Assembly: GCA_043228905.1 (NCBI GenBank)
Contig: JBHGNT010000018.1
Coordinates: 8,308,001-8,372,000 of the forward strand
Reading direction: 5' to 3'
Origin: Azolla caroliniana
Taxonomy: Eukaryota; Plantae; Polypodiophyta
DNA length: 64,000 nt
A program made the translations under genes and the position numbers. Under the pieces are notes generated by a model that was given only the letters and a program-made list of their open reading frames with translations, was not told where the DNA came from and did no database searches. Below, one piece after another: positions 1,727-59,104 of the stretch. Position 1 is the stretch's first letter; each line of letters starts with the position of its first letter.

Positions 1727-4700
1727 TGACAAGAACTACGCGCTCTCTAAACACAACGCTCGGCCACAACCGAGTCTAGGATCAAACACAGAAAACGGGT
1801 AATGTACGCACGACACAGTGAAGAGAAGAGTACACAGGATGTTAACGTGGAAAACCCAAACTAGGGAAAAACCACGGCAGCCCACAGACTGCAAACTATC
1901 ACTATATCACAATGTACAATAGTGAAGCACCGAGGCAACGACCTCGAGCTTGCTATCTTCGCCATATGCGGCGGTTACAACAGAGGTAACGACCCCTTCC
2001 TCTCTCTCTCTCTCTCTGTACACAGTTACGCACTCAAATCTTGCACCAACAAGAAATGACAACTACAATAACCACTAAGTTTGCCCTAAGTCATATTTAT
2101 ACTAATATGACTTTTCATCTATTTACAAATATAGCCCCGATGCACTCTCAGAAAACATATTTACGAATATGTCCCTTCATCTGGTGAGCAGTTCTCACCG
2201 GGCCTTCACCATCCGGCTCTTGCCGGGTACTCGTCATCCGGTTCTCACCGAGCCTTCCTTGTCGGGTACTCGTCATCCGGTTCTCACCGGGCCTTCCTTG
2301 CTGGGTGCTCATCATCCGGTTCTCACCGGGCCTTCCTTTCCGGGTACTCGTCATCCGGTTCTCACTGGGCCTTCCTTGCCAGGTACTCGTCATCCGGTTC
2401 TCACCAGGCCTTCCTTGTCGGGTACTCGTCATCTGGATCTCACCGGGTCTTCCATTGCCGGGTACTCCAATCCCATCCGGAGGGATGTGTTTCCTAACAA
2501 AGTCCCCCTTCACTCCGGCATGGGATGTCTTACTAGTCCGATCCGCTTCCGACATGCATCCAGCCTGTCAGGTATCAGTACTTTGGTCAGCATATTTGAC
2601 CCGTTCTCGGCCGTGTGGATCTTCATCAACGCGAACTCTCGATCTTCTACTCGCTCCCGGATCCAGTGATACCTACGCTGGATGTGCTTTGTCCTGGAGT
2701 GGTACGTTGCGTTCTGAGCAAGGTGGATGGCACTTTGACTGTCACAATAGAGCCGGTATTCATCTTGCCAGATACCAAGCTCTCCGATGAAGTCCTTCAT
2801 CCATAGTATTTCCTTTCCGTCTTCCACAGCCACCATGTACTCCGCTTCCGTGGTTGACAACGCAACCGTCTTCTGCAGGCTCGACTGCTACGAAACAGCT
2901 CCCCCTGCATATGTCATTACATACCCGGATGTAGACCGGCTGGTATCCACTTCAGCCGACAAGTCTGAATCGGTAAAACCGTCAAGTTGAGGTCTACCGG
3001 AGCCGAATCGGAGACACATGTTCGAAGGGGTCTTCAAGTACCGGAGTATCCATTTGACCGCGTTCCAGTGCTCCTTACTGGGATTGCTCATAAACCGGCT
3101 CACCACTCTGACTGCGTATCCTATATCTAGTCAGGTACACACCATTGCGTACATTAAGCTCCCGATGGTAGAGGCATATGGAACCTTCATCATATCAGCC
3201 TTCTCTGCTTTTGTCTTCGGGCTTTGTTTACTGGATAATCTGCAGTTTACCAGGAGTGTCGATCTGACCGGTTTCGCTTCTAGCATGTTGAAGCGCTGAA
3301 GCACTTTTGTCACGTATTTCTCCTGTGACATCCACAATTGCTTCGTTGGCCGGTTCCTAATGATATGCATCCCTAACATCTGTCTTGCCGGACCCAAGTC
3401 TTTCATTGCGAAAGTTCGGTTGAGAGCCTTCTTCAGCATCCGTACTCTGGCTTGGTCCCATCCAACGATCAACATGTCGTCCACGTACAGAAGGAGTATC
3501 AGGAAGTCGCCTCCTTCGAACTTCTTCCCAAACACGCAGTGATCAGCCTACGTCTTGTGGTACCCTTGATTGGTCATGAAGGAATCGAACTTTTGGTACC
3601 ATTGTCGGGGAGCCTGCTTCAGTCCGTATAGGCTCTTCTTCAACCGGCAAACCAGGCACTCCTTCCCTTTCTCCACGAATCCTTCCGGTTGTTGCATGTA
3701 GATCTCCTCTTCTAGGTCACCGTGAAGGAATGTTGTCTTCACGTCTAGCTGCTCTACCTCGAGGTCCATGCTTGTCGTTATACTCAGCACCGTCCGGATG
3801 GAGGTCCTGCATGGCACTTAACCATTTTCGGCTGTGGGTGTCACTTTTAGCTTCCTTGAAGGTTTCTTGCTCCCCCTCATCGTTCAGCAGCACATGCTCT
3901 GCATCCGGAAATCTTCGGGGGGTCCTTCTCTCTCTGAGAGGATATCTCCGTCTTTGACCTTCGGCAACCGACTCCACTATTTGTTCTTCATCCGAATCCG
4001 ATTCGGGGTCTTGGCCGGTTCCGGTTTCACCTATTCCTTCTTCTTCGGTCTGTCTTGTCTCCTTACCGTCACCGGATGATTCATCGAGTGCTAACCGGTC
4101 TCTTGTCGGTTAGGTCTACTCATCATAGAATCGATCCTTACCGGTCGACTTGGAGTTCATTATCTTCTTCTCCGACTCCCAATCGGCGAGCGTCTTGTCC
4201 TCCATGAAGATAATATCTCCACTCCGGAATACCTTCTTGTCAGCTAGGTCCCACACTCGGTAGCCGAACTCATTGTCGTCGTAACCGAGGAATATACATG
4301 ACCGGGTATTTGGATCCAACTTTCCTCTTCGGTCCTTAGCAACATGCACGTACGCGAGACACCCGAATACCTTCAGATGCCGGTAGGACACTTCCTTACC
4401 GGTCCACACCTTCTACGGTGTGTCTCCATCCAAGGGCACTGAGGGTGATCTGTTTATCACATACGTTGTTGTCGACAGCGCCTCAGCCCAAAACTTCTTA
4501 GGTAATTTTGCATGCGCCAGCATACTCCGGACCCTCTCCATTATGGTCCGGTTCATCCTCTCGGCCAGCCCGTTTAGTTTCGGTGTCTTCGGCACGGTAA
4601 ATTCAAGCCAGATTCCCTTCGAACAACAGTACTCCTCGAACTGCCCCTAGTATTCACCTCCGTTATCTGCTCGAACCGCCTTCAGCTTCCGACTGGTTTC

Positions 4701-6855
4701 TCTTTCCACTCTCGCGTGGAGCTCTTTGAAGACGGATAGCACCTGATCCTTCGTCTTCAGCGGTGTGGCCCACAACTTCCGGGTGTGGTCATCTATGAAC
4801 GTCACGAAATACTGCGATCCTGCATGTGACTTCGTGTCCACTTGACACACATCAGTATGCACCAACTCCAGTGGTGCATTACATCTCATCGGTGGCCTCG
4901 ATCGGAAGGAGGTCCGGTTTTGTTTACCGGCCAGGCAATCAATGCACTTCTCGAAGTGCACGTTCTTCACTGGAATGAGGTTGTCGTCTGCAAGCCTCTT
5001 CATCCCCTTCTCACTCATGTGATACAACCTCTTGTGCCACAGCTCACCGGCAGTGTCGGCTGCCACGTACACTTCCTCCGGATATAACCGGGCATTCATC
5101 AGGTACAACGTGTTGACCTTCCAGGCCCGAGCCACAATCAAGCTCCCTTTGCTGAACTTCATAACACCGTTCCGGATGCTACCCGTGTAGCCTTCATCAT
5201 CTAGCCGACCGGCTGATATCAGGTTCAGAAGAACCTCCGGAACGTGTCAGACATCCTTCAGCAGCAGCTTGCATCCGGTTGGTGTTGTCAACCACATGTC
5301 TCCTATGCTGACAATTCAGCATGTACCTTCAATCCCCATCCGGACACAACCGTGATCACCGGTTGAGTAGGATGAGAAGCATTTCTAGTCCGGGGTAAGG
5401 TGGAACGACGCTCCGGAGTCGACCACCCAGGTCATCTTGTCGCCGGCAAGGTTTAGCTCACTCTCCCCGGTGATGAGCATCAACTCTTCTTCACTTGCCG
5501 TGATTGTTGTCGTTCCCTTCCAGTTCATTTCCCTCCGTTCTTTACCGCTCCGGTCCTGTGTCCGCTTCAAATCGATGCCGTCGGTTTCCTTGTCTTTACG
5601 GAAGTGCCGATAGTTTTTTTGGAAGTGTCCCGGCTTGCCGCAATAGAAGCAGGTAGGCCTCCCCTTGACTTTGACTGTGTCCCCGACTTCTCCCGGATCT
5701 AGGGACTACGGTTCCTTTGTCTTCCACGTTCCGATTCGTTAAGGAGCGCTTTGGAGTCGGAGCTCGTATCCTTATCTTTCCGACGCACCTCCACATCTAG
5801 CAAGCTTGACTTCACTCTTCTTAGGGATAACCGTTTTCCTTTCGGCCTGGCGTTGCCCAAGGTGACAACCAAAGTCTCCCAGCTATCTGGGAGGGAACCG
5901 AGCAGGAGTAGTGCTAGTACCTCATCGGCGAGAGGTACTTCCAATGATGTTGCTTGGTGGATCAGCCCCTCGAAGGCATTCATGTGCTCCGCCATGCTGG
6001 AGCCATCTTGGTACCGAAGTTTTACTAGCTTCCGAAATAACGAAACCTGATTAACAACATTTTTGTTCTGAAACATAATGTCGATCTTCTCCTAGAGCTC
6101 ATGAGCCTTACTCTCTTCATTAAAGTTGTTGGATAGACTCATGTCGATGAAGCACCGTATGTAAGCCGTTGTCTTCATGTGCATCACCTCCCATATCGTG
6201 CCGTCAATTTTGTCCGGTCTCTTGTCCCCGAACTGAACCGGCAACCAAAGATCTTTAACCACGAGCATGTCCCTCATCTTCGACTTCCACACCGAATAGT
6301 TGGAGCCAGTGAGCTTGAACATGCCTCCCAATGAATCGTCCATTTTTTTGTGTCGTTTCGCTCTGATACCAGTTTGACAAGAACTACGCACTCTCTAAAC
6401 ACAACGCTCGGCCACAACTGAGTCTAGGATCAAACACAGAAAACGGGTAATGTACGCACGACACAGTGAAGAGAAGAGTACACAGGATGTTAACGTGGAA
6501 AACCCAAACTAGGGAAAAACCACGACAGCCCACAGACTGCAAACTATCACTATATCACAATGTATAATAGTGAAGCACCGAGGCAACGACCTCGAGCTTG
6601 CTATCTTCGCCACAGGCGGCAGTTACAACAGAGGCAACGACCTCTTCCTCTCTCTCTCTCTCTCTGTGTACACAGTTACGCACTCAAATCTTGCACCAAC
6701 AAGAAATGACAACTACAATAACCACTAAGTTTGCCCTAAGTCATATTTATACTAATATGACTTTTCGGCTATTTACAAATATAGCCCCGATGCATTCTCA
6801 GAAAACATATTTACGAATATGTCCCTTCATCCGGTGAGCAGTTCTCACCGGGCCC
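1727..6855 (-). mobile_element. Degenerate Copia (Tnt1/Tork-like) LTR retrotransposon
   Basis: 3' LTR 1727-2499; 5' LTR 6375-6855 (truncated); iMet PBS ~6360-6371; PPT 2500-2510; broken gag, protease (VDSGASFH), integrase, RT (YVDD) and RNase H frames closely similar to 31757-35833. Confidence 0.95.
2190..2470. repeat. 39-bp tandem repeat (about 6-7 units) inside the Copia LTR
   Basis: Unit catccggttctcaccgggccttccttgccgggtactcgt; produces 13-aa periodic spurious ORFs. Confidence 0.9.
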
Positions 6856-7465
6856 ATAAGGAGAGTGAAAATCAGAAATGACAAAAAAATGAGAGGGGAA
6901 AAAGATATATTCATTACATGCCCATAAGGAGTTTATATAATATATCCAATGTAACGGTTACATGACAATTATAAATAAGACCATTACACATTCTTGTACA
7001 CATGCACATAATTGTGCATGTGTCCATACACATACTCATCCTTACACACTCATTCATATAATACATTACACACCTTAAACTTTACACACCATACACATTA
7101 AACCCTAAACACGTTCGCGTTCACAAGTGGAAGGATCGCGCATAAATGGAAGGATAAGGGAAATTTTAGGGGTTTTTCAATGATTTTACAAAACACATTG
7201 ATACCAGTATCATACATGTTCAACCATACTATGAAAAAGGTTTAAAATCCACTATTTTCGTGATTTAGAAGTAACTAAAAAAAGACGAATTTCAAAAAGA
7301 TACATTCTCAATTTATATCACAAACTTTACAACCAATGTTATTTTATAAGAAACGATTTTTTAGAAATCATAAGAATTCAAAACACATGATTTTATATTA
7401 CTCGATTTGTTACAAGCGGAATGTAGTTACACTTAATAGCCAAATATACATTCATGATCACTCCT

Positions 7466-9403
7466 TTACGGAGAATCACTACTATAACTAATATACAATG
7501 ACGATTCCTCCTCATCATCCTCGGATGTACCAATCAATGCATTATCTTCGTCATAAACCAAATGGTTTGACTCTAGATTATATGTAGCAGATCTCGTTTG
7601 CCTTTGACTCGAGCCACCTTGTAGACCTGGTAATTTTTCTTTTATTATATCTATTGTTGACTTCCTTAATCGTCCGGATTTTGTAAGTGTGAAGTCGTAC
7701 ACGATGATATCCACATCAGAGATATCAAGGGTCGAGGTGTTACGAATGTTTCGCTTCCTCTTCCTACCTCCCCTTCTTGTTTGGCATTCAATCATCTCCA
7801 ATGTATACTTACCTGTAAAAGCATTTGCACTTCTAGTGTTGTACCAATGAACATTTATAGACTTGATTGTGTTTTCTATTTCATGCATTAGCACTTCTAG
7901 AATTTTACCAACCCAAAATTGGTGGCCATGTGAGTTCTCATCAGCCAGCGTTGCAATCAACATCCCCGCGGTGAGCTCTTGCAAATTTCCTTGCCATCTA
8001 GCTTCGGCTGCTTTGGTCATCCTTGGTCCCACATAAATGTCTCTTTGTTGTGGATGGACCAAGCTGTCATTAATCGCATTTACTAGTTGCTCCGGACTTC
8101 TATTTACGCGATCATGTTGCAGCGACCATGTGAATGGCGTTTCCAAATTCCAATTATCAACAGATACACAATTGTCTATAATTTCTTTCTGATCACTATA
8201 AAATACATCCCACCATGACGTGTCTTGTTGTGCGGCATATTTCTTGGCGGCCTCAATATGCTTTCTTTTTTCTTCTAAGGCTTGGAGCCATGACCGTTTT
8301 TGTTCTGATACCAAGTCGCTCTGCAACTGTCCTTTCTTCTCAATTGGCATTTGCTTAGCTCCATGGACAATTGTACTCGGCATACAAAGTAATAACTGGC
8401 AAGCACCTTCAGGTTCCCATGTTGTAGAAGATGAATATTGTTTAGCATACAAAAGTGTAGAACCACTTATTCCATCTTTCTTTATCAAAAAAATGTGATT
8501 GAAACTTATATTGTTTAACTGAGCAAGCACTTTAACATTCCCACCACCCCCATCTAATATATATCTCTTAAAGTCATATACCTCCTTCAAGTGTAACACT
8601 TTTGGCCGTGGTGTATAAGCATCACAAATGACATCAAATAGTTTAGGTAAAGTGAAAGCATCATGCCGAGACAACTGTCTGGAGAATGTGCTAAACATCT
8701 GATCTATATGGTCATGTGTGTGGCCAACCAAAAGGAAATTGACTTTCACTTTCCTAAACAATTCTAGGTTGACCAACATACTTAGATAGCCAAATACAGT
8801 TGAATTTTTGTTCTCTCTAGCAGTATTGTCCAATTGAATGTATAGAACAGGGGGGAAAGGTTGTCCCCAAGACATCAAAACTCGGTGAATCACTGTAACT
8901 GTTAGGTTAGGGTCATTGTGAACATTGGGGTAAGTAATGAAGACGTGAGGTCGAACAGACCTATTATAAGCCAAGCATCCCACCAAGTGCATTTGAACAA
9001 GGCATTTGGGGAGCCTCCGCATATGCGGCAAGCATGTCTTCTTCTGGTCCATGCCATCTATCATTAAGCACATGTATTGTTCAGGCCTCTTCAAACACTT
9101 CTCTCTATGATGCATCGCCTTCCTTCTTTCTAAGGATTGTGCCTCACAATGCTCTTGTAGTAACTTCTTACTCGTATCCTTTTCCATTGATGTCTTTGCA
9201 CCTTTAGCCAAACTTTTAAGATTTGCACAAATGGAGCAATACCCCATACGTACTTTACGAGGAATAATAACATTTGAAAACCGAGCTCTCCATAATCTTG
9301 TGAATTGGCTATAGGTGATAGACTTATTACGTGAGCCCAGCATATCAGATCGATAGACATCATAAACTTCCCGATAGAATATGGTGAGTCGGTCGACAGA
9401 CAA
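7466..9403 (-). CDS. Transposase, Sola-like/DUF7869-type RNase H fold (645-aa open frame; N-terminus probably damaged)
   Basis: CxxC (YCSIC), IDGMDQ, LYIQLDNTARENKN, FLLVGHTHDHIDQMFS motifs; lies inside the TIRs. A likely start at 9516 (MSEDSPF...) is in another frame. Superfamily label is from recalled motifs. Confidence 0.8.
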   Translation of the reverse strand: MSVDRLTIFYREVYDVYRSDMLGSRNKSITYSQFTRLWRARFSNVIIPRKVRMGYCSICANLKSLAKGAKTSMEKDTSKKLLQEHCEAQSLERRKAMHHREKCLKRPEQYMCLMIDGMDQKKTCLPHMRRLPKCLVQMHLVGCLAYNRSVRPHVFITYPNVHNDPNLTVTVIHRVLMSWGQPFPPVLYIQLDNTARENKNSTVFGYLSMLVNLELFRKVKVNFLLVGHTHDHIDQMFSTFSRQLSRHDAFTLPKLFDVICDAYTPRPKVLHLKEVYDFKRYILDGGGGNVKVLAQLNNISFNHIFLIKKDGISGSTLLYAKQYSSSTTWEPEGACQLLLCMPSTIVHGAKQMPIEKKGQLQSDLVSEQKRSWLQALEEKRKHIEAAKKYAAQQDTSWWDVFYSDQKEIIDNCVSVDNWNLETPFTWSLQHDRVNRSPEQLVNAINDSLVHPQQRDIYVGPRMTKAAEARWQGNLQELTAGMLIATLADENSHGHQFWVGKILEVLMHEIENTIKSINVHWYNTRSANAFTGKYTLEMIECQTRRGGRKRKRNIRNTSTLDISDVDIIVYDFTLTKSGRLRKSTIDIIKEKLPGLQGGSSQRQTRSATYNLESNHLVYDEDNALIGTSEDDEEESSLYISYSSDSP

Positions 9404-9510
9404 TATTCTTCAATCGAATATGGTGACTCTGTTGACAAACAATACTCTTCAGTAGAAAACGATGGGTCTGATGACAAACAATATTCTTCAATCGAGAACG
9501 GTGAATCTTC
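9372..9510 (-). repeat. 39-bp tandem repeat (about 3.5 units) encoding SPYSIEEYCLSTD-like peptides at the transposase 5' end
   Basis: ORF 9130-9516 begins SPFSIEEYCLSSD PSFSTEEYCLSTE SPYSIEEYCLSTD SPYSI. Confidence 0.85.
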
Positions 9511-10215
9511 ACTCATGGCTTAAGGTCTACATAGGGCTCTCTAAGTTATGGGCTTAGGGTAAGGAAAAAAACTAATAAGCTCGTCTCTAAACATATACTC
9601 CTCTCTAAACATAAACTTCTCTCTAAACAAAAGCCAAATCAATAGAATGTCTATATTATGTAATATTCTATTAATACAATACATCAAAAAATTATTTGTA
9701 ATAAAGTAATTGTACTTAAAATATCAATTATTATATAAACTAGATCTATATGAAGTTAAATCAAGTAAAATATAAAACTAATCATTAACAAGCCATGAAT
9801 ATGTTGGATTAATGTTAAAATCATTGGCTAATTAATGGCACCCATTTTGATATAGAACGTCTCACTCATTGGTTCTTTAATGCTCACCATTTTAAATATT
9901 AGACTTATCAATCATTGGTTAATTCATGCCCACATCTTTAATACACAACATTTGAGAGTCATAAAAATTGTTGCTTTTAGTAATCAATCATTGGTACATT
10001 CATGAACCTCTATCATTGTCTCCTTCATAACCTTTGAAGTCATTGTAGGTTGTTATGACTATAAAAGATTGATCAATATGTTAGTTTGACTTTGTAATCA
10101 TTAATACAATCATAAGTTACTCTAGTTAATGTGACTATGGTTACCAACTAACTATCCTCAAAGTTACCAACCTTGGTTAAGGTGACTATGGTTACTTTAA
10201 CCAATGTGTTCAATC

Positions 10216-10226
10216 CCTATAAATAG
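10216..10226 (+). promoter_or_regulatory. Putative TATA box of the methyltransferase gene
   Basis: ccctataaata about 140 bp upstream of ATG 10360, followed by a leader with 9-bp agagcgtac/agagcacac repeats. Confidence 0.55.
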
Positions 10227-10359
10227 GAAGACCTCGTCATATTTCACTCACCAGAGCGTACAGAGCGTACAGAGCACACAGAACGTAGAGAGCACACAAA
10301 GCACACAGAGCACAAAGCACGAAAGCGCGATCTTCGCCTCCACTTCCACACGATCAACC

Positions 10360-12487
10360 ATGTCTTCAAAGAGAATCGAGCGTGAGGACTCCAGGTAGGC
10401 CTCTGACACTGTGGACATTTTTGTAAATATGTTTCGTTTCTCAAGAGCTCGATACGTCGTATCGAGTTCATGTATACAATACAAATATTTATACATGAAC
10501 TCGATACGCCGTATCGAGTTCCTGTTTAAAGTTTGAATTTTAAACAGGAACTCGATACGCCGTATCGAGTTCCTGTTTATAGTGTAGGTTTTAAACACGA
10601 ACTCGATACGGCGTATCGAGTTCGTGTTTAAAGTGTAGGTTTCAAACACGAACTCGATACGCCGTATCGATATCGAGTTCCTGTTTAAAGTGTTGGTTTT
10701 AAACACGAACTCGATACAGCGTATCGAGTTCCTGGAACTCGATACGCCGTATCGAGTCCCTATATATAAGAAGGCGTTGAGAGAGAAAAATCGTGTTTTG
10801 GGGGTAACAAATAATTATGGGGTGGAAAAGATATCAAATTATCTGGCAAAATCAGTCTTTTTTATGTTGACTTTCCTTACTTTTAAAGAAAAACATGCTC
10901 TAAGTCTTTCAAATACTGAAATTGTAGTCTATCTGGTGCAATTCAAAGTTCTAGTCTTGATTTTTAATTTTACAGTCATAAGGTGTACATGAAGATCCAA
11001 GAAGTTATAATGAAACAACTTGGATGTATAACTTGGGAACAAGTGACCGAGGATTATCCTCTAACGTCTTCGTATAAGGCGTTATCAGAGTATTTTATTG
11101 CATTCAAGGATTGGGTTAGTATTCATGTTTTTTCACTACCCTTTCATCATATGTAGAGCTTGTAGAATAATACTTGATGTCCCATTGCTTCTATTAGAAA
11201 CCGTGTCGAGGCAAGAAACAAGGAGAAGTTAAGGATATACACGATTTCCCTACATCCTTCCTTGCACATCTCGAGCGAGCCAGAAAAGAAAAGGATCGTC
11301 GATTAGTCAAGGCGTACGAAATGGAGGAAGATGGCTCCTTTAAAAAATTTAGCCACAAAAAAGATATTACAAGAGATCTTTACTACAATGTGGTTTGCGG
11401 TGATGTCATCGACTTGATCCAGAAGGTGCCAAAGAAGGAATATACGCTAATGATTGCGGATATTCCTTACGGATTTTGAATGGCTGGGTCATCATACGAC
11501 GATGAACCGTTTAGGTTTAAACAATTGGAGAAGATGGTCAAGGATTTCGCTGAGCTAACGACCGCATCCTTGTGGCGAATAGTTGTCTTTCATAGTATGG
11601 ACCAAGGGTACTCGGTAGCTCAAGCTTTGAGATCTCGTTGCCATGGCATCGAGAACCTTGCATGGTAAGGATTATTTATAGGTGTCTTTCACTATATTGC
11701 ATTTCTTAAGGTTGTTGAATCTATTCTTAACTCGATGAATTATTTTTTATAGGATCAAGACCAATGTAAATAGAGGGACAACTTTTCGGTTCGTTAATGC
11801 CATTGAATACATAACGGTTGGCTACTTCGATGAAATTAAGAAACAGAGAATCAAAGAGCATTCTAATGAAGTGGGAGGTTCAAATCTGTTGGTATATCCA
11901 GCAGTGACTCAGAAATTGCGACATGTCACCACGACAGAACGGGGACTTGTCAACCCATACCAAAAACCTCAACGACTTATGATGCACTTGATCGAGATGT
12001 TTTCTGTCGAAGGAGACTGGATATTAGATCTCTTTTCTGGCACAGGTATTCCTCGAACTAGGGTAACGATCTTGAGATAACCAATCACTTTTTTGTCGTT
12101 TGACAACTAAATCTTCTTGTTACTTACATCACAGGAACTATGTCAGCATGTGCATTGAAGCTGTTTAGAAATACAGTTGCATTGGAGAAGGACGAGGACC
12201 AAGTTATATTTATTAATATGCGGATTAAGGCTTTGTGGGAGTGCCCAGACCAGGATGAGGAGGTCGGTGCAAAGAACCTCGCCAATACAGAAAGGTTTCA
12301 ACCTGCTTCGCGAGAGCCTATTCCTCCGTTAGCCGGCGAACCGGGGGAGCTAATAGAGCTTGATGATGAACTTATAGAAGATATTTCGTTGGCTCGGCTA
12401 ACAGGGGAAACCAATGCACGTATAGCCGAAGACAGTTCTACACAAGATGATGAAGAAAATGACGTTGATGAATTGATTGCTATGTAA
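10360..12487 (+). pseudogene. Spliced beta-class N6-adenine/N4-cytosine DNA methyltransferase (N6_N4_Mtase-like), 428 codons, one in-frame stop
   Basis: Exons 10360-10394, 10976-11114, 11198-11664, 11753-12045, 12135-12487; all introns GT-AG and phase-compatible (1287 nt total). Motifs VVCGDVIDLI, LMIADIPYG (DIPY at 11459-11470), WIKTN...EYI, NPYQKPQRLMMHLI, WILDLFSGTGTMSACALKLFRNTVALEKD. TGA at 11477-11479. Exon 1 is the least certain. Confidence 0.88.
10446..10757. repeat. Array of seven 23-bp palindromes with hairpin spacers (period about 51 bp)
   Basis: aactcgatacg-N-cgtatcgagtt at about 10446, 10498, 10549, 10600, 10651, 10708, 10736; spacers such as cctgtttaaa-gtttgaat-tttaaacagg. Confidence 0.95.
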
Positions 12488-12907
12488 TAGACTCTATAAA
12501 GAATATGACACTAACGATTTGTTAAGATTTCACATTATTAATACAAATTTTGGGTTTTACCTAGTGGATTCTATTCTTTATAATCTTCTATATGTTTCAA
12601 TTTTATTTTTATATACTTGATTAGTAGATTTATGACATTGGTTTCACCGCGTGCATAGCTGACTACCAAACTTATGGAGAAACATGAACTAGTTTAAATG
12701 GAGGCTGATTTTGGTCCAAGCTAACCTTAACAGAACATGGCCCTATAATTGTTGCCATGACTGTCCATGTTGTTATTATGGATCTTTGTCTTCTATTGTT
12801 AAAACTATTATTTTTCTATTCCATTGCTGCTTAGATTGTGTAGTGTGTTGATAATGGTTCCAGTTGCGTTATTGTTCGGAGTTTGATCTTGTGTGAATCA
12901 CCTAAGC

Positions 12908-13152
12908 AATAGAGTAGATCAATTTTAAATACAGGTATGAAAGCCTAATAGGTTTGTTATTTCCACGACATTATCCTAAAGTTCACTGCCTTACATTGTG
13001 CACAATTATATACACATATGGTTTGATCCCATATGAACAAACTGAGGAATAGATTAGATCAACTTTAAATACAAGTATTGAATACTTTAATAAGTTAGTT
13101 ATTCCAATCACTTATCCTAATGTGCACTATCCTACATTTTCCACAATTACAT
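12908..13152. repeat. Diverged direct repeat (about 140-bp spacing) in the transposon right arm
   Basis: aatagagtagatcaattttaaatacaggtat... at 12908 versus aatagattagatcaactttaaatacaagtat... at 13048. Confidence 0.7.
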
Positions 13153-14741
13153 ACATGCACGTATGGGTCAAAGTATAAATTATATCTCATTTTATTAGTA
13201 TGGATACAAGTACACCTTATATTTTTGTAAAACCTACCTAATTAATATAAGTCTTTAAGTTAGTGTTTCCCTTGTCGCACAATAGTGCCATATTGAGCCA
13301 TAGTTGAACTTTATTATGCCTACATTAACTTATCAACATGTCTAAACTTGCATGATTTCTAATGATCTCCACTCGTAGATTTATCATGTATTTTTATATT
13401 TGCAAATTCTCATCAAGTTGAGGAACATGTGATACTAGTGCATACAATTTTTGTAGAGAGGGTGTATTTGCTTCGTTTTAAGAAGATTCTACAAGTGGAA
13501 TGCGCAATCCTTCCACTTGTGAACGCGAACGTGATCCTAGCCCTCCTGTACACCTATACGGCTAGCACTAGGCATGTTGTGGGACAGTATATTGCATGTT
13601 GAACCTGCAAGCCCATTGCCACTCTTGTTAACCGGAACTCCATCGGTCCTCCCTTCTCTCATAGTCAGAAATCCCTCGACCGGATTACTGCTCTAAGATC
13701 GATAGCTTTGATTGGAGTTGGGTTGACACGAACCTTCTCATTCGGTCAGCATGATTGTGGGTAGATCGCACAGGAATAAGCTTATCTACTGTGGTAAAGT
13801 CATTTATGTTTAACAATGATTGTGTGTGTGTGTGTGTGTGTGTATAGATATGTATAGATATAGATATGTTTTTCGTCCTTAGTATGAGTAGTGATGAGTT
13901 ATTGTACCCTTGCGTTTCCGAAATTGTATGTTGTACTCCTCAGGTTTTAAAAATTTTATAAAAAATTTCTCTTCTACCCTCTGGTTTTTGGAATTTTGGG
14001 TCATGCCCTCAAGTTTTTTTTAATTTCTCCCCATGCCCTCTCTCTTTATTTTTTCACTTTTCTTGTTATTTATTCCTGTCGTCCGGTTTTTCTTTCTCCA
14101 TATTCTTCTAATTTTGCATCTGACTCTAAAGCTCAACTTTCATATCAATCGATCTATTGCTCCTCTCCTAACAATACCTATCTGTCTGTTTTCTTGTCTT
14201 CCGTCTTCTCCATCCTTGTTGCCTATGTGCTTTCCATCTTCTCTTTGTTTGCACTGCACTATCATTTCCTCTTCTTCTCTCATCGGCTCTTCAATTTGTA
14301 TTCCAGCCTTCTCAATTTCCAACTGGGCTTGATATTTAGTTTCTTCCCCTTGTCTGATTAGCATATCAAACCATTGTTCTACAAGACGCGCAAATGATTC
14401 CTGAAAGTGGTTTTTTTCGCTATAGGCATGACAAGTTCATGGTATGAAGAGCCTTTCGATTCTAGTGGCAATGATGATGGTAGCCAATGTGATGGTGGTG
14501 GCCCACGGGGGTTGTGACCAAGTGGCCCCAATGCAAATACTGTCCATTGTTCCTGGCTCTCGATCCATGAGGACTGCCCTTGATGGTAATTGTGTCCTGC
14601 TTTCTCGATGATACCGAGTTTCGGAGATGAAGATCACTGGAACATATTGATGGAGTGCTTGAGAGAGTAGAAGGTGGTGTTATTTTAAAGGGAGTGCTGA
14701 GGCTGGAACGAGAATGATAACTGTTGCGAGTGGTGATGATG

Positions 14742-17700
14742 TGTGAAATGTTACGTGCGGTAGCTATATGAAACACAAAATACCAATAAGAAAAAATAGG
14801 TTTAATGGAGACCTTCAGACACGATGTACGCGGGAGAGACTAAGAGGGAAATAACACACAGAAAAAACTAAATTCAAATAATGTGTAAACTCTGTACATA
14901 GGATGTGCTCAGAGAGCACTTTTATACAAGTCAATACGGACTAACAAAAGTACTGACACGTACAATGCTCATAACTCAGGTCCTACACTAACTCCCAAAT
15001 ATATTCCCTCGCGGAATATCTATTCAATGGGCTCTCGGTTTCCGCACCGATCTGGCCTCTTGTTGCGCACCGGTTTGAGCACCGATCCGGCAAATGTTGA
15101 GCTTGTATCTCAACACTCCCCCTCAAGGTCAACTTGAGGCTCTTCTGGTCCTTCACTCCGGTTTCTCTTGACTTCACACCTCGCTCACACTCCTTGACCC
15201 GTTCGATTCCGCGTGCCTCAACTCTTACGGTCGGTTTGTCTGCTTGTGCTACCTTTTCTAGCTCCCTTGCTGTCATGGTGTTGGCACCTCTTTTGCTACC
15301 CTTTCTTCCGCTTGGCCTTCAGTTGATTCGGCGTCTCCAAATCAAACATCCGAGCCGAATCGGCTGGCTCCAATTCTTCTTCGCTTTTGTCTGAATTGTT
15401 TGTCTCCAATTCGTCCTCAATCTTGGCCTTCTCGACCTTGTTGGCTTCAACTCCCCGATGCTTGGCTGGGTCTGGCTCTTTCTTTCGGTTGCTGCCCTCT
15501 CATCCGCTTCCGAACTCTTCCACGGATCCACCTTTGGCTCCTTAAGCCGACACTAAATCGAATTCATGATCCGATTTGGTGCCGTGGTCACTTCCACTCC
15601 TTTCCTGCTCCTTTCCATGGTCATGCGGGACTTTTCTCCCCCTCAAGTAATCATCCGATTTGGTGTCGTGGTCACTTCCACTCCTTTCCTGCTCCTTTCC
15701 ATGGTCATGTAAGACTTTTCTCCCCTTCAAGTTCGGTACATCGAGGTGCCGCAACCCAAGCGCACCCGAGAATTGTTGCAACTTGTCTAGACCAAGGGGT
15801 TTGGTGAAGATGTCGGTGTTCTATCGATGCGTCGGAACATACTGAAGTTCGAATTCACCAGAGAGGACTCGCTCGCGAACAAAGTGGTAGTGCACCTCAA
15901 TGTGCTTAGTCCGGGCGTGGAAGACAGGGTTCTTCGCAAGTTGGATGTTGCTGAGGTTGTTGCAGTAGATCGTCATTGGACCAGACACCTCCACCTACAA
16001 ATCCTTAATTAGCCACTTCAGCCATATGGCTTCGCATGTAGTGACATCCGCTCCTCGATACTTGGCCTCTGTGCTCGACAATGCAACTGTCGGTTGCTTC
16101 TTGCTACTCCACGGGATCGCGGCGCTCCCAAGGGAGAACGCGAATCCAGATGTGGATCAGCGATCGCCGGCATTTCCGGCCCAGTCGGCATCCGAATAGC
16201 CGACTAGTTGCGCGGCAGTACCGGTCTGATATAGTAGCCCCCGGTCCTTAGTGCCACTGACGTACCAGAGTATGTGTTGCGCGCACTGAAGGTGCTCCTT
16301 GGTTGGCCGCACCATGTACTAACTAATCAAGCCAATCGGGTAACTGAGGTCCGGTCGGGTGATAGTCAAGTATATGAGGCTTCCGACAATCTGTCAAAGC
16401 CTTTTCGTGTTGCAGACCTTTCCGGAGTCGGGGTGAAGCTTCATGGTTCTGTCCAGAGGAGTTGAGTTGGACTTACAGTTTACCATCCTGAATTTGAAGA
16501 GCATACTCAGCACATAATGTCGTTGGCTGACCAGTATGCCTTCGGGGGTTCTAATCACTTCGATCCCGAGAAAGCAATGAAGGTCCCCCAGGTCCTTCAT
16601 ATCAAATGATGCCGCAAGCTAGAGCTTTACGCGATCAATTTCACCTAAGTCAACGCCGGCGATGATCAAGTCATCAACATAAAGTAAAATACTAACCGGC
16701 CCAAGTCAACCTTGTCGGACGAACAATGAAGAGTCCGATTTGGATGTCGCAAATCCCATCCGACATAATCGATGCGTCATCTTCGCGTACCAGGCACGCG
16801 GGGCTTGCTTTAGTCCATAAAGGGAATTCTTCAATCGGCATACCGTTGAAGTGTTCGTTCCAGAGTGAAATCTGGCGGGTTTTACCATGTACAGTTGTTC
16901 CTCAAGCTCGCCTTGCAAGAACGCATTCTTTACATCCATCTAATGTAAGTGCCACCCCTTCGCCGCAGCTACCGCAAGCAAAACACGGGTTGTCATCATC
17001 TTGGCGACCGGCACAAACGTCTCATTGTAATCGATGCCTTTCGCTACTAACCAGGCCTTGTATCGGTTGACCGAGCCATCGGTGTTGTACTTGACCTTGT
17101 ACACCCACATGCATCCAATCGGCATTACAACCTTTGGGGCATCAACTAGGTCCCAGGTATCATTCTCTACAAGTGCGTTCATCTCTTCGTCCATGGCGGC
17201 ACGTGAATTTACGTCCTCTGTTGCTTCTGCGTAGCTCTCTGGCTCACGCACTTCCGCTACATGTGTCATGTACGGATAGTGATGTGCCATGTACTCGTTG
17301 TATCGGAACTGCATAATAGGGTTCTTCTGGTGGGTAGATCGGCGTAATTGCTCATTAGCCGATGTTGAGGCCGTTCTGGCCGACGCGGGCTTCACTCTTG
17401 AAGACCCGTCATCGCTCTTCTCGTAGTCGGATTTGTGGTGATCCTACTCTTCCCTATCTATGCCGTACTCCGACATCTTCTTCATTTCCTTTTCTTTGCG
17501 TGTAAGACATCTCTTCATCATTCGGTCTTCTTAGCTGAAATGAGATCAGACTCTCTTCAAGAGTGTCAACTTCGCACTCATGAGGGAGCATCTCAGCCTC
17601 GCTGACCTCATCTTCAGAACTCGGATTGGAGTTGAGCTCCGGAGTCGGAGGCAAATTCCAAGACGCGGACTCATCGAACACAACATCGCAACTTATGTGA

Positions 17701-20269
17701 GCTTGTTTGGTTTGAGCGTTATAACACTTATAACCCTTCTATTCGTCTGAGTAGCCGACCAAGATACAGTTCTCGGATTTCGTGTACAGCTTCCTCCGCT
17801 TCTCCTTCGGCACATGCACATACGTGATGCTACCGAAAACCCTCAAGTGTCGTAGATTCGGCTCCCTTCCGAAATACAGCTCATGTGCCGACACTTTTCC
17901 TCCGATCCAATTCTAGATGTAGACCATAGTTCAGACCGCTTCAGCCCAATAGAACTTGGGCATGCTCTTTTCTTCTAGCATTGCCCATGCCGCTTCCACA
18001 ACCGACCGATTCTTCCTTTCGGCTACGTCATTTTGCTCCGGTGTATACGTGCAACTGAATTCGCTCTGAATTCCCATTTGTTGCAGATAACTGTTGAATT
18101 GGCCGGAAAAGTACTCTTTTCCGCCATCCGACCGAAGACACTTGATCTTCCTCCCCGTTTCCTTTTCGACAATATTTTTGAGGTTCTGGAAACATTTGAA
18201 CACTTCACTCTTCTTTTCGATGAGCTAGATCCATGTGTGCCGGGTGTAGTCATCGACGAAGGAGATGAAATATCGACTCCCGCCAAAACTCGTGGTCTGT
18301 GCCGATCCCCATACATCTGAAAGTATCAAGTTGAGCTTATTTCGGCTCCGATTACGCTCATTGGGGAAAGGACGTCAGTGTTCCTTCCCTAGCTGGCAGG
18401 CTTCACAAATTTGGGCCTTTGGAGCACTGAATTTCGGCAATCCGAACACAAGTTGTTTCAATTGCAAGTCCTGAAGCCTTTGGTAGTTGACGTGGCCTAT
18501 CCACTTATGCCACAAGTCAATATCTGACTCGACCTTTTGACCTTTCGCGAACATGGTGGTGCCTACGTCATTGGTTTCGAGGATGAACATCCTCCCATCT
18601 TTGCACCCTTGCACAATAACTTGGCCGTCTTCCTCGATGAAGCACCCGAGATGCGTGAACCGGACTTGCATCCCCTAGTCGACGATCTGTTCGATCGACA
18701 CCAGATTCTTCGTAATTGTCGGGACATGTAAGACGTTCATTAGCTTCCTTTTTTGCCCAACGTGGTTGAGCGGAACTTCACCGACATGTATGATCAGATG
18801 CGGAGTGTCGTCTCCTGTTGCAACTACTCCAGGTTGTTCCGGTTTTTCCAGATATGATAAGCGCTCTTTATGGCTCGTCATATGGTTTGACGCTCTTGAG
18901 TCAACGTACCACGCTCCGTACGATATCGGGGTGATCTTCTTCATCGAGTTCGTTTTGTGTCTTTGAACGAAGGTTGCACCCTTTGCGACTTTTTCGGATC
19001 CTTCGACGTAGTGCGACCACTACTGATTTGCTTGTTCAATCCATCCAAATTTGGATCCGGTTTTCTCCGAATCGGCGTGCTTCTTCCAACACTCACTCTC
19101 CTTGTGACCTTTCTTGCCACAATACCAACATTCCGCGGTGTGTGTCCCTTGTCGGTTCTCGTCGCCTCCTTGACTCCCCCTACTTCTGGAGGGTCCGGAA
19201 TTGCTGTCGGCATCACCACGATGCCTTCTTCCTTGCTCTCGTCGGCCGCCTCCATTACGCGCTGACTCACCTCGTCTGCCATGACTATGGGGCCTATCTC
19301 CCTCCGTGTACAACATCTTGTTGTTAGTGTGCATACTCGTCGACGCACCCGTGTGATTCTCCTCTATAAGGAGCATTGACTGCAAGTCAAAAAACGACGG
19401 CGTATTCTCCCTTGTACAAATAGTAGTGCGGAATGCCCCGAACTTCAACGCAAGTCCTCCGAGGCAGATCTGCACCATTTCGCCCTCCTCAACATTCACA
19501 TCGATAGAGGCGAGGGAGTTGCAGATTTCCTTTATCTTGGAGGTGTAGTCAGCCACTATCACGTCGCGTTGACGCAGATTGCTCAACTCCTGTTGGAGTT
19601 AGAGCTTCCTGGCTATGGTGCTTGCGGCGAAAATATTTTTCAGATTTCCCCAAGCATCCTTCGGCGTTCGGGTTTCGCATCATTCGCTCCATCAACATAG
19701 CTCACTATCCATGTCCGAGCAGGTAATGGTGCATCTTGTATGACCAAGATGTGTAGTTACTTCAGTTGAGTTTCTCAGTTCGAAGCGAACTAGCCATACC
19801 TCTATCCATTTTTTCCTTTCTGTGCATCACCAAGATTAGGTTTATTTGTTTTGTTTTGAGCTAAAGTCGGCTATACAGGTTCTCAACCCTCACGCTCTGA
19901 TACCATGTGAAATGTTATGTGCGGAAGCTATATGAAACACAGAATACCAACAGGAAAAAACAAGTTTAATGGAGAGCTTCAAACATGATTACGCGGGAGA
20001 GACAGAGATGGAATTAATACACAGAAAAAACTAAATTCAAATAATGTGTAAACTCTGTACATAGGATCTGCTCAGAGAGCACTTTCATACAAGTCAATAC
20101 GGACTGACATGTACTTCAATGCTCATAACTCAGCTCCTACACTAACTCCCAAATATATTCCCTCACGAAATATCTATTCAATGGCCTCCCGGTTTCCACA
20201 CTAATCCGGCCTCTTGTTGCGCACCGGTTTGTGCACCGATCCGGCGAATGTTGAGCTTATATCTCAACA
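14742..20269 (-). mobile_element. Degenerate full-length Copia LTR retrotransposon
   Basis: LTRs 14742-15115 and 19906-20269; TSD tgatg on both sides; iMet PBS 19894-19905; PPT 15116-15127; gag with CWYCGKKGHKESEC knuckle, integrase, RT and RNase H fragments with many stops. Confidence 0.96.
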
Positions 20270-31139: not shown

Positions 31140-34100
31140 TGTTGGGAATCAACGCTTGGATTCACCTTCACCACTCGGCCACAACCGATTAATCGCGGAT
31201 CAATGTAGCAGAAAATAGGAAATACAGAGAAAGACGCGATACACAGGGATTAACGTGGAAAACCCTATACGGGAAAAACCACGGGAGTGCGAGACTCCGA
31301 ACCAAACTATGCACAGAGAAATATACAATGGCGAGCTGCAAGGCAACGACCTTGAGCTCGCTGTCCTCGCCACAGGCGGCGGAAATACACAGAGGCGTCT
31401 ACCTCTTCCTCTCTCGCGCTCTATCTCTCTCTCTCTCTCACGGCTGCTCCCTCTTCACTCCTCTTGAGTGGAAAAACAGAAAAATAATGAGCAACAGAAA
31501 AACTGTTTGCCCTAAGTCATATTTATACTTATATGACTTTGGGCTATTTACAACTATAGCCTCAGGGGGCTCGTAGCGAACATATTCACGGATATGTCCC
31601 TGCATCCGGATCGCTCTTCGGGTACATTCGTCATCCGGCACCGAAGCCGGGGTCTTCGTCATCCGGATCCGAAACCGAAACCGGGCTTGTCGGCATTCAT
31701 CTCCGATATCCGACCATCCCATCCGAAAGGGACCGTAATCCCAACAAACTCCCCCTTCACTTCGGCATGGGATGTCTCTCCAATCCGACCCTCTTCCGGC
31801 ATGCTTCCAGCTTGTCGGGTGTGAGGACCTTGGTCAGCATATCCGACCCGTTCTCGTCCGTGTGGATCTTCGTCAGCACGAACTCCTTGTCCTCTATCCT
31901 TTCCCGGATCCAATGGTATCTACGCTGGATGTGTTTCGTCCGGGAATGGTAGGCCGCGTTCTTCGCAAGGTGGATGGCACTCTGACTATCGCAGTAGAGT
32001 CGGTACTCCTCTTGCCGGATACCGAGCTCTCTAATGAAGTCCTTCATCCATATTATTTCCTTGCCGGCTTCAACAGCCGCCATGTACTCCGCCTCCGTGG
32101 TTGACAACGCAACCGTCTTCTGCAGCCTCGACTGCCACGAAACAGCTCCCCCTGCATACGTCATCACATACCCTGATGTGGACCGGCTGGTATCTGCATC
32201 AGCCGACATATCAGAATCAGTAAAGCCTTCGAGTTCGGGCTTACCGGAGCCGAATCGGAGGCACACGTTTGCCGTGCCCTTCAGGTATCGGAGTATCCAC
32301 TTGGCCGCGTTCCAATGCTCTTTGCCGGGATTGCTCATGTACCGGCTCACCACTCCGACTGCATATCCGATGTCCGGTCTCGTACACACCATGGCGTACA
32401 TCAAGCTCCCGACAGCTGAGGCATACGGCACTTTCATCATATCCTCCTTTTCAGCCTTTGTCTTGGGACTTTGCTTGCTGGACAACTTGCAGTTTGCCGG
32501 TAGGGTTGATCCGACCGGTCTTGCTTCCGACATGTTGAACCGTTGAAGCACCTTTGTCACGTACTTCTCTTGTGACAGCCACAACTGCTTCTTGCTCCGG
32601 TCCCGGATGATGTGCATCCCTAGTATTTGCCTCGCCGGACCCAGGTCCTTCATTGAGAAGGTTCGGTGAAGAGCCTTCTTCAGCATCCGTATCTTGACCT
32701 GGTCCCGTCCGACGATCAACATGTCGTCCACGTACAGGAGGAGTATTAGGGAGTCTCCTCCTTCGAACTTCTTCACAAACACGCAGTGGTCGGACTGCGT
32801 TTTGAGGTACCCTTCGTCGGTCATGAAGGAGTCGAACTTCCGGTACCATTGCCGGGGAGCCTGCTTCAGTCCGTAAAGGCTCTTCTTCAACCGGCATACC
32901 AGGTGCTCCTTCCCTTTCTTCTCGAATCCTTCCGGTTGCTGCATGTAGATCTCTTCTTCGAGGTCACCGTGAAGGAATGCCGTCTTCACGTCCATCTGTT
33001 CTACCTCGAGGTCCATGCTTGCCGCTATGCTCAGCACCGTCCGGATGGAGGTCATCTTCACTACCGGGGCAAATATCTCGTCGAAGTCGACGCCCTTCTT
33101 CTGCTGAAACCCCTTCACCACGATCCTGGCTTTGTATCTCGGGGGGTTTCCGGCATCTCCCAGTTTCAGCTTGAACACCCACTTGTTTCGCAGTGCCCGC
33201 TTTCCTTTCGGCAACTCCACAAGTTCATATGTGTGGTTCTCATGCAGGGAATCCATCTCGTCCTGCATGGCACTCAACCACCTGCGGCTCTGGGTGTCAT
33301 GCTTTGCTTCTTCAAAGCTCTCCGGCTCCCCCTCGTCGGTTAGCAACACGTGCTCTGGTTCCGGAAATCTCCGGGGGGCCCTTCTCTCTCTTAGAGGGTA
33401 TCTCCGTTCCGGAGCTTCGGTAACCGGTTCTTCCGATTCTTCTTCTTCATCCGAATCCATTTCGGGATCGGGGCCGGTTCCGGTATCATTTTCATCTTCT
33501 TCGGCCGGTTCTGTTTCTTCACCGTCTTCGGCCGGATCCTCGAGTGCTAACCGGTCCCTTGCCGGTCGGGACTGCTCCTCGTAGAGTTGATCCTCACCGA
33601 TCGACTTGGAGCTCTTCATCTTCTTCTCCGACTCCCAGTCGGCGAGCGTCTTGTTCTCCATGAAGATGATATCACGACTCCTGAATATCTTCTTGTCGAC
33701 CGGGTCCCATACTCGGTAGCCAAACTCGTCGTCACCGTAACCGAGGAATATGCATGGCCGGGTCTTAGGATCTAGCTTTCCTCTCCGGTCCTTTGCCACA
33801 TGCACGTATGCTAGACACCCGAACACCTTCAGATGCCGGTAGGACACTTCCTTACCGGTCCACACTCTCTGCGGCGTGTCTCCGTCCAAAGGAACTGAGG
33901 GTGATCTGTTTATCACATATGTCGCCGTCGACATTGCCTCAGCCCAAAACCCCTTGGGTAATTTCGCATGCGCCAGCATACTCCGGACCCGCTCCATTAT
34001 GGTCCGGTTCATCCTCTCGGCCAGCCCGTTCAGTTCCGGCGTCTTCGGCACAGTAAACTCGAGTCGGATTCCCTTCGAGCGACAGTACTCCTGGAACTGC

Positions 34101-59100: not shown

Positions 59101-59104
59101 TCAT
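53199..59104 (-). pseudogene. Gypsy gag-pol in three pieces (55271-59104, 54396-55274, 53199-54356)
   Basis: CYYCRKEGHYSNQC, IIDGGSGVN, FGLKTAPATFQR, FLDD, VDASD, WGLDFVGP, WTGPF; frameshift near 55275 and stop at ~54396; a ~126-bp tandem duplication in gag at ~57440-57695. Confidence 0.93.

Follow-up and report, generated by a model that had tools for sequence, protein, structure and literature searches.

The 64,000-nucleotide stretch of DNA analysed here (the window) contains a decayed transposon of 6.4 kb, which is bounded by 36-bp terminal inverted repeats (TIRs) and a 4-bp target-site duplication (TSD) and carries two internal deletions. The transposase gene and an accessory gene lie on opposite strands, and an array of palindromes is located within the accessory gene. 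The features are as follows.

7108..13535, no strand: whole TIR DNA transposon, Sola1-like as judged from its ends
7108..7143, + strand: left TIR (AACACG...), read from the sequence
7466..9516, − strand: DUF7869 DDE-type transposase gene (PF25273, E 1.8e-51), with about 235 codons deleted near 9373
10218..10224, + strand: putative TATA-like box of the accessory gene
10360..10394, + strand: exon 1 of the ParB-like/methyltransferase (accessory) gene, 35 nt, phase 2; shared, donor included, by 11 related loci, with fitting phases
10395..10903, + strand: intron 1 up to the deletion junction, as placed by comparison with related loci
10446..10758, no strand: seven 23-bp palindromes (AACTCGATAC-NNN-GTATCGAGTT), period mostly 51 bp
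10901..10903, + strand: deletion junction with TAA on both sides, where a ParB-like exon of about 540 codons was removed; the alignment of locus L013 starts at 10901
10976..11114, + strand: exon that follows the ParB-like exon (HKVYMKIQ...), 71% identical to the Ceratopteris protein P0190
11198..11664, + strand: methyltransferase exon carrying DIPY, with a premature stop at 11477–11479 that is private to this copy
11753..12045, + strand: methyltransferase exon with the SAM-binding DLFSGTG motif (PF01555, E 9.6e-08)
12135..12487, + strand: final methyltransferase exon, located by tblastn with Ginkgo proteins
13500..13535, − strand: right TIR, with one substitution near the tip

The TSD is CCTA, found at 7104–7107 and 13536–13539 of this single insertion, the other loci being collapsed contigs. 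The terminus is AACACG, with AA standing before CACG at 17 of the 18 ends examined across loci. A CACTA-like assignment, in which the ends are read as CAC, was rejected because the AA is constant and the TSD is 4 bp long. From its ends alone, i.e. the AAC-type termini and the 4-bp TSD, the element appears to be Sola1-like; the transposase is recognized by PF25273 (DUF7869) only, so that this class label does not derive from named Sola transposases, and the name 'DUF7869' was not found in the literature searched. The transposase is 90% identical to intact relatives of 929–932 aa, and ferns and a liverwort supply its closest named relatives, which suggests a non-flowering land plant as the host. 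At its deletion, a contig of depth 380 runs on at 9374 into the part that is absent here. This copy is dead, having lost part of its transposase and an exon and gained a stop in the methyltransferase. At locus L008, an element of about 8.6 kb was found that is nearly complete, with one TIR tip at the contig edge; its order is transposase, short exon 1, array, exon of about 545 codons and methyltransferase exons.

In the element at L008, the N6/N4 methyltransferase domain belongs to the same gene as the ParB-like domain, opposite the transposase and within the TIRs, with splicing predicted from sequence. Position 11477 is C in 96–99.5% of the depth in other copies, which thus have no stop at this position. 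At the junction 10901–10903, the contigs of other copies diverge on both sides, into a splice acceptor on one and, on the other, into codons that correspond to the end of the lost exon. A TATA-like box 3′ of the array was rejected as the true promoter of the gene, since exon 1 is conserved upstream. The methyltransferase exons follow the beta-class order, the motif IV exon (DIPY) preceding the motif I exon (DLFSGTG). The canonical catalytic motif of amino-methyltransferases is (D/N/S)PP(Y/F/W), for example DPPY. DIPY is present in five of five copies, under purifying selection, and DLFSGTG is also intact in the intact copies examined; with DIPY instead of the canonical DPPY, the predicted methyltransferase activity is uncertain. 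No longer relatives of the DIPY exon were found among 355 candidates, and the FSGTG exon had no sequence match in the PDB. Two Schistosoma repeat proteins among the protein matches were spurious.

The large ParB-like exon (approximately 540–545 codons) is 60% identical to a Ceratopteris protein (KP509_1Z236600) and has relatives in Ginkgo as well, and none of 117 candidate stretches in prokaryote genomes or 29 candidates in viral contigs was a relative. As the domain gave no Pfam match, its assignment was made at the level of the fold. The first model of the exon was of low confidence (pLDDT 50.7, from 9 sequences), and all ten of its Foldseek matches with E up to 0.001 were ParB, Noc and KorB. 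Its alignment with VIA PadC gave Z 8.8 (94 aligned, rmsd 2.8) and that with KorB Z 7.6 (138 aligned, rmsd 9.9), and the Atlas model of P0190 matched ParB/Spo0J clusters with a TM of 0.47–0.54 by query. A second model, covering the ParB-like region alone (pLDDT 61.0), ranked the same families first with weaker scores, and gave no Foldseek match at E 0.001 (best, Noc at 5.7e-3). The helical region was aligned inside the ParB, Noc and KorB matches; in the second model, taken alone, it gave a weak match to the ParB DNA-binding domain (Z 3.6), so that a helix-turn-helix there would be no more than putative. The intact gene is thus predicted to encode a ParB/Srx-fold domain, then a helical region, and then a beta-class N6/N4 methyltransferase.

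A homodimer of the ParB-like protein was predicted with a score of 0.54, compared with 0.21 for the best control, with contacts within the ParB/Srx domain, agreement between runs in at least 66% of contacts and a pLDDT of at least 71. Among eukaryotic solved pairs, 17 of 29 attained the mark used for this score, and among single chains none of 30 did, but only one of seven pairs without an older solved relative attained it, so that prior exposure of the model to solved ParB dimers may explain the pass. The ParB core is nearly invariant among the loci compared. Its putative nucleotide-site motif is GGSHS or GGCHS, in which the GxRR arginines are absent. As described in PMC10770331, these arginines are required by VirB and ParB for CTP, and the CTP sliding clamp may therefore not apply to the protein considered here.

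The seven palindromes of the array start at 10446, 10498, 10549, 10600, 10651, 10708 and 10736. Units 2–4 are exact copies of AACTCGATACG-N-CGTATCGAGTT, units 1, 6 and 7 each carry one substitution, and in unit 5, 6 bp of the right arm are duplicated. The periods are 52, 51, 51, 51, 57 and 28 bp, leaving five spacers of 28–29 bp and a last one of 5 bp. The earlier note had described seven 23-bp palindromes with a single central N, alternating with spacers of about 28 bp: the number and length of the units hold, but the last spacer is an exception, and the conserved site is 10-3-10 with a central triplet that varies among copies. The enrichment of CpG and TCGA that it had noticed was borne out, with 32 CpG and 15 TCGA in the 312 bp of the array, a CpG observed/expected ratio of 2.48 (0.66–0.78 in the remaining element) and a GC content of 0.41 (0.37). 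The placement within the first intron was likewise confirmed. Exon 1 and its GT donor lie 46–139 nt upstream of the array in this copy and in 11 loci, indicating that the intronic position is, on present sequences, a trait of the family. The array lies at most 250 bp from where the accessory gene is predicted to start, and approximately 900 bp from the start of the transposase. The array folded much more stably than any of 100 shuffled versions (z −19.6 for RNA, −19.3 for DNA), as would any chain of palindromes.

A palindrome scan of metagenome contigs yielded 58 loci, consisting of 18 single high-GC matches and 40 low-GC loci. The high-GC matches, in prokaryote-like DNA, are probably due to chance and were set aside. 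Among the low-GC loci, 38 of the 40 were tied to the transposon family by protein match, TIR, exon 1 or flank, the exceptions being L019 (a multi-unit array) and L055 (a single site). The array is thus present in related loci, and in a family context instead of that of the independent MITE or satellite considered in the earlier note. The palindrome had no match in viral contigs, and ARAGORN detected no tRNA in 10 loci. Of the 40 low-GC loci, 39 are contigs whose assembly names have close numbers, and these may stem from one sequencing project, in which case one host lineage was sampled. The arms are 94–95.5% identical to the consensus over 151 distinct units (111 in a second analysis), a value biased upward by the selection of loci and units, the loci having been chosen for the presence of the site, so that copies without it could not appear. 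The set of 151 units, like the CpG-transition counts given below, was taken without L045, L050 and L051 and with L012.

The site AACTCGATAC-NNN-GTATCGAGTT is approximately 95% identical between subfamilies, and the spacers are unrelated and wholly replaced. Between the 51-bp and the 32/40-bp subfamilies, the accessory gene has a dN of 0.06–0.11 with a dS of 2–4 or saturated, indicating strong purifying selection by this codon comparison, and the dS of the transposase is about 2. Synonymous divergence of this order indicates that neutral sequence has been overwritten between these subfamilies; the site has not. The site was also found in a 3.5-kb non-autonomous family of five contigs, which has both TIRs, a transposase remnant and perfect sites in new AT-rich surroundings; no methyltransferase match and no exon 1 were detected in these five contigs.

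The number of units ranges from 1 to 15, with one or two sites only in L032, L033, L035, L043 and L053, and both orientations occur (central GCC in 40, GGC in 34). Such variation in number and orientation, together with the two loci for which no family link was found, would be expected of a neutral minisatellite or a nested MITE remnant homogenized by slippage and gene conversion. However, 20 bases of the site are fixed despite the replacement of the spacers and the saturation of synonymous sites, and no array copy with its own TIRs or TSDs was present among the 58 loci. Neutral homogenization would also not favour whole helical turns, which are described next, and we consider this explanation highly improbable.

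Among adjacent periods of up to 80 bp, 136 of 158 were 31/32, 40/41 or 51 bp (87 of 105 when distinct spacers were counted), lengths that correspond to three, four and five helical turns. The best-fit helical repeat, for which L045, L051, L012 and L050 were retained, was 10.0–10.25 bp (R 0.79), with a phase of about 0 at 10.25. Periods of 41 and 51 bp coexist within one array, as do those of 31/32 and 40/41 bp. Off-phase periods (28, 33–38, 47, 57 and 64 bp) are also present, and the non-autonomous copies have periods of 49–50 bp and long gaps. Three random length classes fitted equally well in 0.3–2.6% of draws, a rough estimate because the tolerance was set post hoc. Operator arrays, on which dimers of a protein bind cooperatively along one face of the DNA, have this geometry of a 10-3-10 palindrome recurring at whole helical turns.

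In the arms, CpG transitions were about four times as frequent as other transitions in low-coverage contigs (0.083 vs 0.021 per site), and the corresponding values in high-coverage contigs were 0.054 and 0.015 per site. This excess indicates, as far as substitution patterns tell, that host 5mC reaches the array and that the array is not permanently shielded. Methylation of the array is one of the observations that would agree with a role as RNA, in which hairpins of the intron would be diced to small RNAs or would regulate the splicing of the methyltransferase transcript. Others are the strong folding (z of about −19), the constant placement of the array towards the 5′ end of intron 1 in autonomous copies, and the symmetry of the spacer arms, which differ from locus to locus (0.78 within loci vs 0.49 between loci).

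Tests of pairing, G-U content and within-array period and symmetry, from which L045 and L051 (inverted flanks, possibly a fold-back assembly) and the duplicates L012 and L050 were excluded, argue against this role. The ratio of sense-strand G-U to A-C, obtained without loci of unknown orientation, showed no G-U excess in the arms (24:28), and was 15:15, 16:12 and 9:5 in spacers. Covariation specific to the spacer was absent, since within loci a spacer arm was matched by its own partner no better than by that of a neighbour (permutation p 0.84 and 0.58); the pairing of spacers that the earlier note had reported is real for single spacers at 10446..10758, but is not a rule within loci. Symmetry across the palindrome (0.80) at least equalled that within the spacer (0.74; 29 units). 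Taken together, these three observations suggest that the hairpin-like spacers probably arose as a by-product when palindromic units were copied in both orientations. Moreover, the arms conserve sequence beyond mere pairing, the lengths track the DNA helix, the sites are kept where the intron is gone, and all 31 of 31 Rfam matches of the array were generic hairpins under the gathering score. The structured intronic RNA or small-RNA source, offered earlier as an alternative, gained no support from these tests, and we regard it as quite improbable.

The evidence so far argues that the array is, with good probability, a platform of double-stranded DNA for a protein. Conservation, phasing and retention in non-autonomous elements name no binder by themselves, and the protein might be the transposase, for which the array would enhance transposition or transcription from within the element, or else a host factor. 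Transposases can be sequence-specific activators, as stated in bioRxiv 10.64898/2026.08.24.746577, and the TIR tip AACACGTTCG equals the half-site at 6 of 10 positions, with AACACGATAC variants also occurring. This likeness is weak, however: 264 of approximately 12,160 element positions match at 6 of 10 or better, outside the array a match of 8 of 10 occurs at one position only, and the motif that is repeated at the element ends is another one, GGAAGGAT, unlike the site of the array. In addition, the element itself encodes a predicted dimer with the fold of proteins that bind palindrome clusters, and the array lies within that very gene. The transposase or a host factor is thus an unlikely binder, though less so than an RNA role is.

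We favour, with some reserve, the ParB-like protein of the element itself as the candidate binder, the array being a parS-like docking array for a dimeric ParB-like methyltransferase. The earlier note had proposed a multimeric platform for the methyltransferase or transposase of the element; the platform gains support from conservation, phasing and retention in non-autonomous elements, and we infer that the ParB-like/methyltransferase protein is the one bound. The proposal becomes more specific because intact relatives encode the ParB-like domain that was lost from the copy at 7108..13535. One dimer would bind each 10-3-10 palindrome, and the phasing would set adjacent dimers on the same face of the helix, allowing cooperative binding. 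Given the short distances from the array to both gene starts, binding would bring the methyltransferase to the divergent promoter that the accessory gene shares with the transposase and concentrate it there. In weaker steps of the proposal, the enzyme would mark the element, with adenine N6 somewhat likelier than cytosine N4 as its target, and would help to maintain its expression in the face of host silencing, including that of non-autonomous copies acted on in trans. As the main alternative, the same binding could instead lead to feedback repression of the gene by its own product; self-marking is preferred as the purpose since non-autonomous copies keep the site without having such a gene to autoregulate. 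A complete bacterial-style parS/ParB module in a land-plant transposon, with cooperative loading, spreading to the shared promoter and a private N6-methyladenine or N4-methylcytosine that counters 5mC silencing and is exploited in trans by site-only copies, is a more doubtful proposition, which we consider rather unlikely.

Several known systems resemble parts of this arrangement. As described in PMC12477816, Sola1-1_Ec32 of Ectocarpus likewise has AAC-type ends (AACCG), a 4-bp TSD and an accessory gene opposite the transposase, and its ParB-like domain, fused to an N4C/N6A methyltransferase, was proposed to bind and modify its own element; the proteins were compared here by description. It differs in belonging to a brown alga and in having a length of 21.5 kb and a 282-bp TIR (PMC12477816), whereas the present element is from a land plant, is approximately 8.6 kb long when nearly complete, and has a 36-bp TIR and an intronic array. 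The main text of PMC12477816 describes no palindrome array, and the sole mention in its supplement concerns another family. In Plavaka PAG3 of the red alga Bostrychia, a ParB-like protein is encoded beside tandem inverted repeats that were proposed to be its own sites (bioRxiv 10.1101/2025.02.11.637652). That element is of the EnSpm/Plavaka type, its ParB is fused to a 2OG oxygenase, the adenine methylase is a separate gene and the arrays are adjacent, and the section on PAG3 in the same preprint reports neither the sequence nor the phasing of the sites and no test of their conservation.

Bacterial ParB/parS, Noc, KorB and VirB share with the present system the ParB/Srx fold followed by a helical region, dimers (here predicted) and clustered palindromes, to which ParB dimers bind (PMC10770331). 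VirB, a relative of ParB, is an anti-silencer, and KorB represses at a distance, according to PMC10770331 and PMC11790492. Compared with bacterial ParB/parS as presented there, the protein described here lacks the GxRR arginines and a ParA partner, its site is 23 bp long (16 bp in parS), and it is fused to a methyltransferase in a eukaryotic transposon.

The analogy with VANC drawn in the earlier note fits in its logic, but the protein family (ParB-like plus methyltransferase) and the geometry of the site (a 23-bp palindrome) differ. VANDAL transposons are Mutator-like elements. VANC arrays, which also occur in the intron of the VANC gene itself, are a functional precedent, and their motifs are short, non-palindromic (YAGTATTAY) and fast-changing between families (PMC5735166). 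VANC causes loss of 5mC and has neither a ParB nor a methyltransferase domain, as described in PMC5735166. According to bioRxiv 10.1101/2025.02.11.637652, binding and modification of its own element has been shown for no transposon other than VANDAL. Captured methyltransferases are found in the DNMT retrotransposons of eukaryotes, but these are C5 enzymes in retroelements (PMC5890265). Marchantia DN4MT1 is also prokaryote-like or captured and of the beta class, but has TSPPY and is a host gene; a ParB domain or an array is not mentioned in the available text of bioRxiv 10.1101/2021.02.12.428880.

ParB-methyltransferase Sola1 elements in a brown alga and ParB-adjacent inverted-repeat arrays in a red alga are therefore already in print. 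What is new is the occurrence in a land plant, the placement in an intron, the phasing and the exact site: a land-plant ParB-methyltransferase transposon, the site of the array and helical phasing of such arrays were not found in the literature searched, which covered few subscription journals and no Repbase reports.

Two algal genome papers have proposed that ParB-like proteins of transposons bind and modify their own element, and this proposal is now directly testable. The present analysis supplies the base-level definition of a candidate site, evidence from evolution that it is selected as double-stranded DNA, spacing rules and relatives with intact coding sequence. If only the binding is true, the array would still be a eukaryotic parS-like operator array. 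If both binding and methylation are true, an adenine or N4-cytosine mark that is encoded by a transposon and targeted by sequence would exist in non-flowering land plants, and the compact pair of site and writer could serve as a targeting tool.

The Sola1-like element lies within another repeat, since in one contig that lacks it the flanks at window positions 7088 and 13548 are joined through 14 other letters. The remainder of the window consists mostly of LTR retrotransposons (2100-6400, 15000-20000, 31757-35971, 45078-47096 and 53199-59134), including the following two.

Window 31757-35971, copia polyprotein of 1404 aa, uninterrupted
Window 53199-59134, gypsy-like retrotransposon

Within the element, repeats and promoter-like motifs were found at the following positions.

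Window 9377-9495, 39-bp coding repeats (EEYCLS units), transposase N-terminus
Window 9816-10004, four copies of the CCAAT-box-like repeat ATCATTGG, divergent promoter shared by the transposase and accessory genes
Window 10252-10314, 9-bp repeats, 5' leader of the accessory gene
Window 10761-10769, TATA-like TATATATAA, immediately after the last palindrome of the array

The four ATCATTGG repeats are spaced by 45, 46 and 76 bp, and the EEYCLS units are also present in relatives. The TATA-like motif at the array edge is skipped in many copies, in which position 10638 is joined to 10777. Many transposase contigs, about 4 kb long, terminate at the array. In two palindrome-bearing metagenome loci, L045 and L051, the flanks are inverted copies on either side of the array, which probably reflects fold-back misassembly.

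In the non-autonomous family of 3.5-kb elements, A/B-box units of the tRNA-like RNA polymerase III type adjoin the palindromes at five loci (L006, L009, L027, L030 and L044), and converge on the palindromes in the first three. The units of L009, where T4 runs sit between the A/B box and the palindrome, are as follows.

L009 1550-1604 (+), A/B-box unit beside the palindromes
L009 1858-1804 (-), A/B-box unit beside the palindromes

No tRNA was called at the A/B-box units of this family by ARAGORN or Rfam.

The accessory protein of the related copy L013 has a further predicted domain, for which a Pfam search gave no match.

L013 3932-5590 (-), residues 83-148, predicted six-stranded beta-rich domain, N-terminal to the ParB-like domain

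The ParB-like/methyltransferase family spans ferns, lycophytes and gymnosperms, as indicated by gene models annotated as hypothetical proteins in Ceratopteris, Diphasiastrum and Ginkgo (P0139, P0187, P0188, P0189, P0127 and P0190); the Diphasiastrum model is fused with a P450 model. Residues 170-495 of P0190, from Ceratopteris, resembled fungal DUF3723 clusters on language-model features (score 0.96). DUF3723 is a cargo of fungal Starship elements, and on this likeness ParB-like cargo would recur across eukaryotic mobile DNA.
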